A stretch of 48,302 bases of DNA from Escherichia phage vB_EcoD_Opt-719. Location: the sequence record OL539451.1; one strand, written 5' to 3'. A program made the position numbers and the translations under genes. The notes below the pieces were generated by a model. It worked only from the letters and a program-made list of their open reading frames with translations. It ran no database searches and had not been told where the DNA came from. Below, one piece after another: positions 42,813-47,929 of this stretch (position 1 is its first letter; every line of letters begins with the position of its first letter).

Positions 42813-43328
42813 ATGAGTAATACAATTCGTGAAGCAAACCCGACACTTGGCGACCTGGTGCGCCACCTTGTTAAGATGGCACTCAATTCAGAGGATGGAA
42901 GCGTAACAGTTCCCGTTAAGTTGCTTTACAAGAATCTTTACGGAGAAATTGATAACGGCTATGTAGCAGCCGACTTTAGACCTGGCGGCAAATATTCACT
43001 TCCAAAGCTTAAGGCTTCCTATGTTTCAAATACAGCCAGTAGAATGCAGGAAGTTAAAGACGCAGATAAGCGCGCAAGGTTCTCTTGTGGAGAGATGGAT
43101 TATAATGGTGATGAGCATTATTGCGTAAAAATCACAATGGTCGACGGAGCTGTTAAGAATGGAACCCGAGCTAAGACAAGCAGTCAATTAGAGGAGAAAG
43201 CGGTAAGCGAGTTTAAAGCCAGGCTACTTAAGCTTTCCCCTAGCGTTGCAGGCATGAGTGGTGATGAACTTAAGGGCGCGGTAACTATGATTAACGCATA
43301 TCAGGAAATGATTAAGGAGACTAAATAA
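42813..43328 (+). CDS. hypothetical protein (171 aa)
   Basis: first gene of rightward early block; GAGAGGAG RBS. Confidence 0.5.
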   Translation: MSNTIREANPTLGDLVRHLVKMALNSEDGSVTVPVKLLYKNLYGEIDNGYVAADFRPGGKYSLPKLKASYVSNTASRMQEVKDADKRARFSCGEMDYNGDEHYCVKITMVDGAVKNGTRAKTSSQLEEKAVSEFKARLLKLSPSVAGMSGDELKGAVTMINAYQEMIKETK

Positions 43329-43870
43329 TGTTTGATTTCAAAGAGGATAAACTTACTTATGAGCAGGTGTTAGCAGCAGCAGCGGCAGACAATCTGCCTC
43401 CCTTGCGAGTATCAATAATTGCAAATGGTTACCGACAATCTGCAAATCTATGGCCTGAACTGGATAAGGTCAAAGATTTCGAACTAGACACTGGAGCTTT
43501 AAAGATTATAGAAATCCTCATTAATCAAGGAATGAGCAGTAAAGGTGTCGTTGGTCTCGGGTCACTATATAATACAGTAAGGAAAGTTAAACCATTCGAA
43601 GGTAAAAGTGAAGTAATTATGGATATCAGAGATGTCATCATCCCAAACCTTGATAAGCTTGGCTATGCATGCCTAATCGGAGATAAGATTTACATCAACC
43701 CTAAACTGCTTGATGGCAACCAGGACTGGACTTACAAGGTTAAGCTGCTGGAAGATGATTTCAACATCGACGATTGCGAGAAGATTGTTGACGAGATTAC
43801 TATCAAGGCAATTGATGAGCAAATCGAGAGGCTCAAGCGGAAGAAGAAGTACCTCCTGACCGGTAAATAG
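43328..43870 (+). CDS. ATPase-less mini-paralog of the 39438..41021 P-loop protein
   Basis: 180 aa; MFDFKEDKLTYEQVLAAAAADNLPPLRVSIIANGYRQSA and KGVVGLGSLY...CLIGDKIYINPKLL match the N- and C-termini of the 527-aa protein; ATG overlaps upstream TAA. Confidence 0.55.
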   Translation: MFDFKEDKLTYEQVLAAAAADNLPPLRVSIIANGYRQSANLWPELDKVKDFELDTGALKIIEILINQGMSSKGVVGLGSLYNTVRKVKPFEGKSEVIMDIRDVIIPNLDKLGYACLIGDKIYINPKLLDGNQDWTYKVKLLEDDFNIDDCEKIVDEITIKAIDEQIERLKRKKKYLLTGK

Positions 43871-43884
43871 CACGAATTGCTAAA
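43865..43884 (+). promoter_or_regulatory. promoter-cassette motif copy
   Basis: AAATAGCACGAATTGCTAAA; contains TAG stop; GGGATGCG, TTATAGT and CATCGAAACGAAA downstream. Confidence 0.5.
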
Positions 43885-43948
43885 CCAGTTCCGCAGGGAT
43901 GCGTTATAGTTATTTCATCGAAACGAAATGGTTAATAGAGGAAGGCAA

Positions 43949-44107
43949 ATGAGTTATTACGAAGTTATCGACACTGGCAATAAATCATTACTTGGCTCAA
44001 AGCGCTTTAAATGTACCGGCCAAGGGTTCACTGGATACGGCTTTGACGAGAAAGATGCCATCCTGGAATGGAAAGAAGCTAAATACATTGGGGAGTTCGA
44101 CGAATGA
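43949..44107 (+). CDS. hypothetical small protein (52 aa)
   Basis: first cistron after promoter cassette (GAGGAAGG RBS); below ORF-track cutoff. Confidence 0.35.
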   Translation: MSYYEVIDTGNKSLLGSKRFKCTGQGFTGYGFDEKDAILEWKEAKYIGEFDE

Positions 44108-44247
44108 AACACATTGGATGGCTGGTAAACGGAACGTTCTACTCACTAACCGACGCAGTAAGGGTGGAAAGAATTAGAGTTAACTGCGGACGAAATGTCC
44201 AGATTCTTGAAATTTACGCAGAGGAGGAAGTATGCGTAAGGTACTGA
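44104..44247 (+). CDS. hypothetical small protein (47 aa)
   Basis: ATG overlaps upstream TGA (ATGA); 3' end overlaps start of membrane-protein gene; GGAG RBS. Confidence 0.3.
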   Translation: MKHIGWLVNGTFYSLTDAVRVERIRVNCGRNVQILEIYAEEEVCVRY

Positions 44248-44708
44248 TGATATGCGTCTATGTTGCCATATTCTTATTGGCAAACCTCCTGGTAGCCTCA
44301 TTTGGTCCAGCGGTAACTCCATTTAACGCACTTTTTCTTATAGCGGCAGACATGGTATTAAGGGACAGGATTCAGTTTGAGAGCGGTGCGGCATGGTCAA
44401 TACTAGCATGCTTCCTTGCCGGATTTGCGACTGTATTAATAGCGCCAGGTTCAGAGATGATTGCTTTAGCATCTGGCCTATCATGCTTACTTGCTGGATC
44501 AGCTTCAGCGATTGCATTCAAATTAAAGTCTGGTGGATTTTTTCAGAAGGCGTTGCCAGCAAACGTAATTGCTGCTGCGGTAGATTCAATTGCATTCCCA
44601 TTAATTGCTTTCGGGTCTATAATGCCAGGCATAACAGCAGCCCAGTTTGCCGCTAAAACTATTGGCGCATCAATCATACTATTAATCATAAGGAAATTAT
44701 CTAAGTGA
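44232..44708 (+). CDS. polytopic inner-membrane protein, tentatively YhhQ/Vut-like (DUF165) transporter
   Basis: 158 aa, ~5 predicted TM helices, GAGGAGG RBS; family guess from size, topology and conserved-looking Asp/Arg residues (AADMVLRDR, AVDSIAFPLIAF); unverified. Confidence 0.4.
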   Translation: MRKVLMICVYVAIFLLANLLVASFGPAVTPFNALFLIAADMVLRDRIQFESGAAWSILACFLAGFATVLIAPGSEMIALASGLSCLLAGSASAIAFKLKSGGFFQKALPANVIAAAVDSIAFPLIAFGSIMPGITAAQFAAKTIGASIILLIIRKLSK

Positions 44709-45535
44709 CAATTCACTTCCATGGCTCCCCTATAACGGGGGGCAAGGGCGATGCACTTGCTCGGACCGCGTATACAAATGGCGGTGCTTTCGTGTCATTC
44801 GCCCACCCGCAGCAGATAGAATTGGCGTTTAAGGTAGCGAATGCAGTATGCATAGATAATGGTGCGTTCTCTAAGAAGAATAGCGGCAAAGCTACTGACT
44901 GGCATAAATTCTATAATGACTTTTTACCCAGATTTATCGACAGAGAAAAGTTACGATTCTTTGTTATACCTGATGATATCAGCGGGTGCGACAAAGAGAA
45001 CGACAGATTAATAAGCGAACTTCCATTACACCTAAAGCACAAAGGAGCTCCAGTCTGGCATATGCATGAGAGCTTAGACAGGCTAGTCCACCTTGCCAAC
45101 GAGTGGGAATACATGTGTATAGGCTCGTCAGGCGAGTACTACTCTATCCGTTCAGAGAAATGGAAGCGGCGCATGAATGATGCCTTTAACGCTCTAATTC
45201 AGAGGGGCTACTCAGCAAAAATTCACGGCCTCAGAATGCTGGATGGTCGAGTTCTTGGCAACTACCCACTGGATCAGGCTGACTCAACAAACCTGGCTAT
45301 TAATGCGCCTAAGTGGATATGCAAATATATAGATATGACCATTGAGGCGTGCCGAGCTCAGACTCACAGAGACGCATGGATTTCAACCTCAGATCCGAAG
45401 TTTGCACTTGAGCAATTAATCGCAGACGGCGGCACAAGGGAGCAGATGCTGGCACAGAGATGCGCGATACTCAGGAATTGCATAGAAGCAGTAAGGCCAC
45501 CATCAAGGGATTCATGGAATAGCACGAATTGCTAA
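44705..45535 (+). CDS. hypothetical enzyme, tentatively TGT/DpdA-like transglycosylase
   Basis: 276 aa; GTG start overlapping upstream TGA (GTGA); motif VCIDNGAFS loosely resembles TGT catalytic DSGGFQ; call rests mainly on gene context; unverified. Confidence 0.3.
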   Translation: MTIHFHGSPITGGKGDALARTAYTNGGAFVSFAHPQQIELAFKVANAVCIDNGAFSKKNSGKATDWHKFYNDFLPRFIDREKLRFFVIPDDISGCDKENDRLISELPLHLKHKGAPVWHMHESLDRLVHLANEWEYMCIGSSGEYYSIRSEKWKRRMNDAFNALIQRGYSAKIHGLRMLDGRVLGNYPLDQADSTNLAINAPKWICKYIDMTIEACRAQTHRDAWISTSDPKFALEQLIADGGTREQMLAQRCAILRNCIEAVRPPSRDSWNSTNC

Positions 45536-45536
45536 A
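45517..45536 (+). promoter_or_regulatory. promoter-cassette motif copy
   Basis: GAATAGCACGAATTGCTAAA; supplies TAA stop (C-terminal NSTNC) of upstream gene. Confidence 0.5.
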
Positions 45537-45592
45537 CAATAAATCGGGTAGTCAGCTATGATTACCCTATCAACAACGAAGAGGAAATGATT

Positions 45593-45805
45593 ATGGATAC
45601 TGGAATTTTACGCATTGACGATGTTCACTTTGACCAGGCTGAGGTCAGTGTCACCAAGTTAACCTTTCGAGGTAATGTTGTTAGCCTTGACTTCGATCCT
45701 GACGACTACGGCGACGGTCAAACACTTATGCAATACTCACCTGTTGCGGCCCGCAAATTAGCGGCGGCATTAATCCTGGCGGCAGAAGAGGCGGAAGAGC
45801 AATGA
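45593..45805 (+). CDS. hypothetical protein (70 aa)
   Basis: start ATG 45593 with GAGGAA RBS (track ATG 45587 has no spacing); Ala-rich acidic C-terminus. Confidence 0.4.
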   Translation: MDTGILRIDDVHFDQAEVSVTKLTFRGNVVSLDFDPDDYGDGQTLMQYSPVAARKLAAALILAAEEAEEQ

Positions 45806-46297: not shown

Positions 46298-46540
46298 ATG
46301 AGCAAGTACAACCGAGAGATTATCGGCCTGGATGGAACGTTAACGACAGTCGATGTATATCGTGTTCTGGATGCATTCCAGGTAACAGACCCAGCAATTC
46401 AGCACGCAATCAAGAAAATGCTCTGTACTGGGTTGCGAGGCCACAAGGATTACCTCACCGACATTGATGACTCAATAGAATCACTTAGGAAAGCAAAGGA
46501 GCTTTACGGTCAGAAGAAGATAAATAGCACGAATTGCTAA
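46298..46540 (+). CDS. hypothetical protein (80 aa)
   Basis: track ORF; C-terminus NSTNC supplied by promoter-cassette motif. Confidence 0.45.
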   Translation: MSKYNREIIGLDGTLTTVDVYRVLDAFQVTDPAIQHAIKKMLCTGLRGHKDYLTDIDDSIESLRKAKELYGQKKINSTNC

Positions 46541-47746: not shown

Positions 47747-47822
47747 GTTCTGTTAGTGTAAGTGGACAGCACGAAGACCTCCTAAGTCTTAGGTACTGGT
47801 TCAAGTCCAGTGCGGAACGCCA
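47747..47822 (+). tRNA. tRNA-Arg (anticodon CCU)
   Basis: 76 nt cloverleaf by hand: 7-bp acceptor (GTTCTGT/GCGGAAC, two G-U), D-stem GTGT/GCAC with GG in loop, anticodon loop CUCCUAA, T-arm ACTGG-TTCAAGT-CCAGT, encoded CCA. Confidence 0.8.
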
Positions 47823-47827
47823 AATAT

Positions 47828-47929
47828 GCTCACGTTGCTAATGTTGGCCTAAGGGTGGAGCTTATACCTCCATAAAGCAATCACCAGATAAGTGATGTAA
47901 CGCAGGTTCGATTCCTGCCGTGAGCACCA
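47828..47929 (+). tRNA. atypical tRNA-like element (102 nt incl. CCA)
   Basis: perfect 7-bp acceptor pairing GCTCACG/CGTGAGC, T-arm GCAGG-TTCGATT-CCTGC, discriminator A plus CCA; two candidate anticodon stem-loops (CUUAUAC, CAGAUAA); D-region ~26 nt too long. Confidence 0.35.

Follow-up and report, generated by a model that had tools for sequence, protein, structure and literature searches.

A compact candidate module for salvage-type 7-deazaguanine DNA modification in the T1-like Escherichia phage vB_EcoD_Opt-719

What is the function of the four short, overlapping genes that Escherichia phage vB_EcoD_Opt-719 (OL539451.1) carries between positions 43949 and 45535? The stretch of DNA that we analysed (48,302 nucleotides (nt), hereafter the window) is the complete ~48.3-kb genome of this T1-like phage (Drexlerviridae, Rogunavirus/Rogunavirinae). 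An earlier note, made from the sequence alone, had proposed that a membrane protein and an enzyme encoded by the last two genes salvage a 7-deazaguanine precursor and place it in the phage DNA. This reading turns out to be largely right, in that both of its family guesses hold and the searches of the window described below found no genes for preQ0 synthesis. We put the probability of the full mechanism, a minimal salvage-type 7-deazaguanine DNA-modification module, at about 0.6, and we are confident, if short of certain, that what the last two genes encode is a DpdA-type transglycosylase and a QPTR-type membrane protein, and that these act together. The four cistrons are all present where the note had placed them:

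43949..44107, + strand, first micro open reading frame (micro-ORF) from the ORF list, 52 amino acids (aa), acidic, isoelectric point (pI) 4.8
44104..44247, + strand, second micro-ORF, 47 aa, in ATGA overlap with the first
44232..44708, + strand, putative miniature Vut/QPTR (YhhQ-family) membrane protein, 158 aa, pI 9.7, six predicted helices
44705..45535, + strand, putative phage-type DpdA-like 7-deazaguanine transglycosylase, 276 aa, pI 8.4, TIM barrel

The 158-aa gene overlaps the 47-aa ORF by 16 nt and has a GAGGAGG Shine-Dalgarno sequence upstream, and the 276-aa gene starts at a GTG codon inside a GTGA overlap with the 158-aa gene. This GTG is the right start because the resulting MxIHFHG N-terminus aligns with the N-termini of homologues. 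GenBank starts the first micro-ORF at an upstream ATG at 43928 (59 aa); the Shine-Dalgarno sequence AGAGGAAGG favours 43949.

The identity of the enzyme follows from its relatives. It matches PHROG_887, labelled 'queuine tRNA-ribosyltransferase', at E 7e-71, and a profile of 72 family members aligns with the DpdA of phage CAjan over 171 columns in hhalign (98.8%, E 5.8e-17), placing IDNGAFS opposite LDSGAFS and ADSTN opposite CDSSS. A less diverse profile gave 93.8%, and CAjan DpdA used as a tblastn query retrieves the 276-aa ORF at E 0.001; the two enzymes share only about 20-24% identity. Deleting dpdA from CAjan abolishes all dPreQ0 (PMC6884629, PMC7544227). The enzyme family is large (>3,000 clusters at 90% identity, 1,331 at 50%) and includes Salmonella phage 7-11 (tblastn E 9e-40, 37% identity) as well as many P22-like, lambdoid and Vibrio phages in which tblastn finds it annotated 'queuine tRNA-ribosyltransferase'. 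The matches to PHROG_887, to CAjan DpdA and to phage 7-11 bear out the guess that the enzyme belongs with TGT and DpdA.

Conservation is concentrated at what would be the active site. Only D51, D90, H119, H174, D193 and S194 are invariant across the 72 diverse family members, joined in 45 closer members by F55 and the loop from G140 to G143 (G140-SSG143). Successive beta-strands of a (beta/alpha)8 TIM barrel, a fold closest to TGT/DpdA structures, carry the invariant residues at their C-terminal ends. As candidate roles we suggest acid/base catalysis for D51, a gate for F55, base recognition for D90 and H119, and the nucleophile for D193-S194; the G140-SSG143 loop and H174 are also candidate catalytic residues. 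The set thus contains the three aspartates, the gate Phe four residues on and the putative base-reading His of the TGT superfamily. In order and spacing, rather than by superposition, it matches D95/F99/D130/H181/D256 of the bacterial DpdA, where Asp95 is the acid/base, Phe99 the gate, Asp130 and His181 bind the edge of the base next to a Gly-rich loop, and Asp256 is the nucleophile (PMC10164549). The same order and spacing is found in D73/D122/K154/H226/D248 of Cap10 (10.1101/2025.04.06.647259). The stretch VCIDNGAFS, which the earlier note had loosely likened to a catalytic motif of tRNA-guanine transglycosylases, lines up with FLDSGAFS in the genetically validated DpdA of CAjan, and its D51 is invariant throughout the family. 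Judged from these sequence comparisons, the enzyme is probably a DpdA-type transglycosylase, which would exchange guanine for a 7-deazaguanine in DNA.

The membrane protein was said to be polytopic and of YhhQ/Vut type. Six helices are confidently predicted in its AlphaFold2 model (pLDDT 90), and it matches phrog_4899 at E 5e-28. Its profile aligns over the full length (141 columns, 96%, E 3.3e-9 in hhalign) with CAjan gp41, a 159-aa protein named 'yhhQ / putative preQ0 transporter' within the deazaguanine cluster of that phage. The 158-aa protein itself stays below the gathering cut-off of PF02592, the Vut_1 model (E 0.07, 13.9 against 27.2 bits), but ten of 19 homologues, collected down to 33% identity, match it (best E 1.2e-11); together with gp41 they uphold the family guess. 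What it shares with QPTR/YhhQ proteins (COG1738, PF02592) are the six helices and a conserved C-terminal core, IA-AS...D...DS..F..IAF, and D118, S119, F122, P123 and A126 are invariant among its homologues. With E. coli YhhQ, which at 221 aa is some 60 residues longer, the likeness is confined to the C-terminal half (hhalign probability 13%); a broader local hidden Markov model of the miniature Vut family gives a modest match to YhhQ residues 109-166. A fold search of viral structures (BFVD) gave three high-probability matches, the sole named one being a 'Putative vitamin uptake transporter', and the PDB holds no YhhQ-family structure. We therefore regard the protein as a shortened, divergent QPTR/Vut member. 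It may import preQ0 or a related 7-deazaguanine base; we infer the substrate from context because specificity varies among QPTR proteins, the E. coli protein taking up preQ0 and preQ1 and the Chlamydia protein queuine (PMC11130926).

The two genes belong together well beyond this phage. In a survey of 50,697 phage records the enzyme family occurs in 104 and the miniature Vut family in 20, and in 13 of these 20 (11 distinct phages) the Vut gene has the enzyme gene as its immediate neighbour on the same strand, the two overlapping, touching or separated by at most ~40 nt; by chance the two would co-occur in ~0.04 records. The pair is present in T1-like phages (Opt-719, Phc, Lg3, LHE71) and in other backbones: the 69-kb phage RCIP0319, ECO111 5-P, the Flyfo siphovirus Tbat1_6, Pectobacterium phage PEAT2, whose RefSeq record names both genes, and, with the gene order reversed, Acinetobacter phage AB3P2. 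Five or more unrelated phage backbones show translational coupling of Vut and enzyme, and gene order and coupling are retained at 53-63% protein identity. In bacteria, fusions of bTGT with QPTR exist (PMC11130926).

Nothing in the window would make the base. CAjan FolE, QueD, QueC and QueE gave no tblastn hit in it (all E > 0.1), and Pfam scans of ten larger ORFs, most of them un- or doubtfully annotated, returned no Que gene and no methyltransferase. The absence of preQ0-synthesis genes fits the salvage idea, and the modified base would have to come from the host or from the environment. It had been remarked before that no DPPY-type methyltransferase motif was in sight, and we likewise found [DNS]PP[YFW] in no real ORF of the window, nor any Dam-like gene; the DpdA module would therefore be the only recognisable DNA-modification function of this phage.

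How does this locus compare with characterised systems? The closest is that of CAjan and 9g (Queuovirinae), whose DpdA1 is homologous, carries the D-x-G-A-F-S and D-S motifs, has no zinc site and presumably performs the same base exchange on double-stranded DNA; CAjan also encodes the homologous 159-aa mini-YhhQ. It differs in having folE together with queD, queE and queC, in replacing ~25-32% of its G by dPreQ0, in keeping transporter and dpdA apart where they overlap here, and in lacking a homologue of the 47-aa protein. When folE or queC is removed, CAjan still incorporates host-derived preQ0, at a level roughly 12-fold lower (Kot et al. 2020, PMC7544227), which indicates that preQ0 made by the host can feed a DpdA. 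The enzyme belongs to the same family as those of the 'Group 3' DpdA-only phages (Hutinet et al. 2019; for example 7-11; the gamma-proteobacterial 'singleton DpdA' cluster), which likewise have no genes for preQ0 or G+ synthesis. With 76 of 182 viruses this was the largest group of the 2019 survey, where reliance on host preQ0 or uptake was proposed and YhhQ homologues were noted in some phages, uncorrelated with any group (PMC6884629); here, in contrast, several lineages show translational coupling between the miniature Vut gene and this clade of DpdA. The bacterial DpdA of Salmonella Montevideo (PDB 7UI4) stands further away: at 413 aa it carries large insertions together with a zinc site of the pattern CxCx2Cx22H, requires the DpdB ATPase and belongs to a restriction-modification island, none of which applies here. 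The genome annotation contains no DpdB, DpdC or restriction component of the Dpd system, and PADLOC, run on the four module proteins including the enzyme, gave no match. Salvage-type DpdA-only phages were known already; modestly new are that this clade of DpdA is so tightly coupled to Vut, that a 47-aa partner is private to the pair, that the module occurs in Drexlerviridae (we found no discussion of this family in the literature on DpdA-only phages), and that it comes as a cassette bounded by promoter elements, for which nature supplies an empty-site control.

Taken together, we propose that the four cistrons would be transcribed from the promoter of their cassette and translated as a coupled chain. 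The 158-aa protein would reside in the inner membrane and import preQ0 or a close 7-deazaguanine base, supplementing the pool made by host QueCDE. The 276-aa enzyme would flip selected guanines out of the double-stranded phage DNA and excise the base, with Asp193 forming a covalent intermediate with the deoxyribose and Asp51 serving as general acid/base. A 7-deazaguanine would then be installed, yielding restriction-resistant DNA. If so, an adjacent transporter implies that the level of modification may respond to preQ0 or preQ1 in the medium. The phage would make a clean test case, being T1-like and able to grow on E. coli K-12, with the whole candidate system in one 1.65-kb cassette and an empty-site relative, AKS96.

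A number of results weigh against this proposal. The two Pfam models that the earlier note had named as checks did not deliver: PF02592 stays sub-threshold, as described, and the enzyme has no match to PF01702 (TGT), nor to any other Pfam or NCBIfam model, so that support for both families comes from the other evidence above. Against the PDB, neither the sequence by itself nor profiles built from 45 and 72 sequences found more than spurious coiled-coil matches and noise, Foldseek against the PDB found only generic TIM barrels, and hhalign of the enzyme family with E. coli Tgt gave 0.2%, no signal; in a published similarity network, phage DpdA clades cluster apart from TGT (PMC6884629). The zinc site of TGT and the bacterial DpdA (CxCx2C...H) is missing, the enzyme lacking a CxCxxC motif as well as any invariant Cys. 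Since the validated CAjan DpdA also has no zinc site, this site marks TGT and the bacterial DpdA and not phage DpdA. On the transport side, QPTR specificity cannot be read from sequence (PMC11130926), and the other seven of the 20 miniature Vut records, from mEp-type lambdoid phages and MagusPhagus, couple the membrane protein to a phrog_757 protein instead. Most serious are two published observations. In the one assayed relative in the DpdA-only group, phage 7-11, dADG amounted to 50 per 10^6 nt, or ~0.02% of G, and dPreQ0 was absent (PMC6884629), and deletion of the CAjan mini-yhhQ had no phenotype (PMC7544227). It is on account of this trace-level modification and of this silent deletion that we hold the full mechanism no higher.

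Of the competing explanations, the one that fares best keeps the chemistry and changes either the base (preQ1, queuine, CDG/ADG or another) or the target, which could be RNA or a protein-linked deazaguanine as for Cap10. Cap10 of type IV CBASS (PDB 9NTN) is the best structural match of the enzyme. Its ligand is a CD-NTase conjugated to a deazaguanine, and its partner in a bacterial defence operon is the QueC-like Cap9, whereas the window encodes no Cap9/QueC-like or CD-NTase partner and PADLOC is silent; the likeness is one of structure, while the sequence link leads to DpdA. The nearest sequence relative of known function, CAjan DpdA, is a DNA enzyme, and a Dam DNA-methyltransferase fusion occurs in the enzyme family. 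As for RNA, the phage tRNA is Arg(CCT) and not a GUN-anticodon substrate of TGT. We consider a different base or target unlikely.

Less probable still, and in our opinion doubtful, is that the enzyme is DpdA-type and its 158-aa partner, a descendant of the Vut fold, serves another role such as membrane perturbation, exclusion or anchoring of the enzyme. Its short length, its low PF02592 score, a YhhQ match limited to the C-terminal half, the CAjan deletion that left modification unaffected and the second partner in the mEp and MagusPhagus phages could all be read this way. The homologues that pass PF02592, a fold with few matches besides a viral 'vitamin uptake transporter', the position of a homologue inside the CAjan preQ0 cluster, the coupling to the enzyme in at least five lineages and the bacterial TGT-QPTR fusions speak for an importer instead, and a DpdA phage without synthesis genes would need exactly a transporter. 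Even the phrog_757 context points to DNA modification, given the 'DNA methyltransferase' label and the Dam neighbour. The phrog_757 partner has ~253 aa and no Pfam match, and lies downstream of Dam and DUF6378 (mEp515, L008:2992-4259; MagusPhagus, L011:2977-4241), where the miniature Vut protein is 35% identical to ours and overlaps it. We rejected the idea that this protein is a hidden DpdA relative (hhalign 0.1%); the pair may be a second transporter-coupled DNA-modification module.

The micro-ORFs differ in how well they are kept. The first has homologues of 58-66% identity in L004, L006 and L009 and is probably dispensable: in the metagenomic T1-like contig L004 (5209-5403) its homologue contains an in-frame stop, with the 47-aa ORF, Vut and enzyme intact. 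The 47-aa ORF, with an invariant N-terminal IGWLVNGxFY, is unbroken in all T1-like copies as well as in RCIP0319, an unrelated phage of 69 kb, at 53-60% identity, and overlaps the Vut start in all of them. Its family comprises only 11 clusters among 5.8 billion proteins, all of 47 aa and sharing contigs with Vut and enzyme homologues, and no homologue of either micro-ORF was found in CAjan, PEAT2, Flyfo or AB3P2. As an accessory of the module, the 47-aa ORF is lineage-specific. One can go further and imagine that the Vut/DpdA pair and the 47-aa protein form a dedicated pipeline that puts an environmentally acquired base, possibly other than preQ0, into phage DNA, with the 47-aa protein as an activator or targeting subunit, in function a small-scale analogue of DpdB. 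We regard this as a long shot, about as doubtful as a role other than import for the membrane protein. Were it true, the restriction resistance of the phage would hinge on a micronutrient in the medium, and targeted liquid chromatography-mass spectrometry might miss the base.

How did the module come to lie here? Alignment with the relative AKS96 reveals a clean empty site, consisting of the left flank, one core and the right flank, which means that the window has a 1,652-bp insertion between 20-nt direct repeats (43866-43885 and 45518-45537). In 33 other Drexlerviridae records the match to the window starts only at about 45517. The repeats are the cores of a dispersed element that borders the module on either side and recurs through the genome:

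43866..43927, + strand, left promoter-cassette copy, from the alignment of all copies and the AKS96 junction alignment
45518..45586, + strand, right promoter-cassette copy (core 45518-45537), right edge of the insertion
2254, 23445 (- strand), 26265, 31186 (- strand), 34066, 37161, 41516 (- strand), 43869, 45521 and 46526, copies of the element

In the left copy, the 20-nt core AATAGCACGAATTGCTAAAC holds the palindrome AGCA-N5-TGCT; next come a spacer of 19 nt that differs from copy to copy, TATAGT as a -10-like box (43905-43910) and the conserved leader tCATCGAAACGA. The general layout is aaatAGCAcgaatTGCTAAA, the 19-nt spacer, TATAGT or TATAAT, the same leader, then ribosome-binding site and ATG. 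The 17-nt core, which the alignment of all copies places within a conserved element of ~75 nt, occurs ten times in the window against 0.15 expected. The promoter cassette postulated in the earlier note is therefore real as a repeated element; its layout suggests that it acts as a promoter, and the right copy would then drive the next gene (45587..45805). A generic sigma-70 scan of the cassette made no promoter call, since TTGCTA, at 22 nt from the -10 element, is too distant to be a standard -35 box; the core may thus be a regulator-binding site. The element, with its palindromic core within AGCACGAATTGCTAAA, is conserved across Drexlerviridae. It stands upstream of many genes of the early and middle classes and appears to be a recombination site at which gene cassettes are exchanged. 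The last five codons of the enzyme gene (NSTNC*) come from the downstream core (45521-45535). An unrelated ORF (46298..46540) ends in the same way, read from the core at 46526-46540; since both frames enter a cassette core before their stop, the shared ends are a by-product of cassette insertion. The best explanation is that 43866-45537 is a self-contained, promoter-equipped early-gene cassette, inserted via recombination between repeated promoter elements. In that case the repeated element of Drexlerviridae can act as a docking site for the swapping of accessory cassettes.

Such mobility raises the question of whether the module is a near-neutral or decaying passenger, spread by promoter-cassette recombination, with an enzyme that is weak or inactive here. 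At the DNA level it is patchy (three of the 50,697 records), close relatives such as AKS96 are without it, modification in 7-11 is at trace level, and one relative has a broken copy of the first micro-ORF. Decay sits badly, on the other hand, with six active-site residues that are invariant among aligned sequences down to 27% identity in a family of 1,331 clusters, with the retention of gene order and coupling between diverged copies, with a 47-aa ORF intact in every copy, and with a module GC content of 0.453 that matches the 0.447 of the genome. We find a passenger very improbable.

A lysis-related glycosidase, suggested by a holin and endolysin neighbourhood, was rejected on the strength of the DpdA homology, the fusions with QueD and Dam, and the Vut coupling. 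That neighbourhood is seen in an E. coli prophage (CP057104.1, L007:7666-9210), where a 50%-identical enzyme homologue lies between a holin and an M15 endolysin and has no Vut. Singleton enzyme copies are common in enterobacterial prophages and are all annotated hypothetical. Elsewhere in the family, one representative protein (P0224) is a natural fusion of QueD/PTPS (PF01242) with a DpdA-like domain and another (P0142) a natural fusion of a D12-class Dam DNA methyltransferase with such a domain. In Caulobacter phage DMCA (L016:5708-6729), QueD shares one base with the start of the enzyme homologue, and no QueC or QueE was seen near it. Association with 7-deazaguanine genes is therefore seen at the level of the family, through P0224 and DMCA, and not in the window.

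At the DNA level the module is 100% identical to that of Escherichia phages Phleasolo and Sadiya and Klebsiella phage Opt-79. The isolation host of these phages was E. coli BW25113, and their sole publication is a genome announcement in which the module goes unmentioned (PMC9119101). GenBank labels the 158-aa protein a 'VUT family protein' in Sadiya and Phleasolo and hypothetical in Opt-79, and the 276-aa protein a 'hypothetical protein' in all three records. Such phages might resist restriction digestion or alter nanopore signals without any warning from their annotation.

Two minor observations concern the rest of the genome. ARAGORN places the tRNA-Arg(CCT) within 47747-47929, followed 15 nt on by a 93-nt tRNA-like structure with an undetermined anticodon, which is not annotated in the GenBank records. 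Upstream of the module, a 180-aa ORF (43328..43870) is represented by three short coding sequences in the Phleasolo record (OL539447.1, 43257-43928), and the match between this part of the window and that record is broken into four pieces, which suggests indels or sequencing errors in the Phleasolo record relative to the window and Sadiya.

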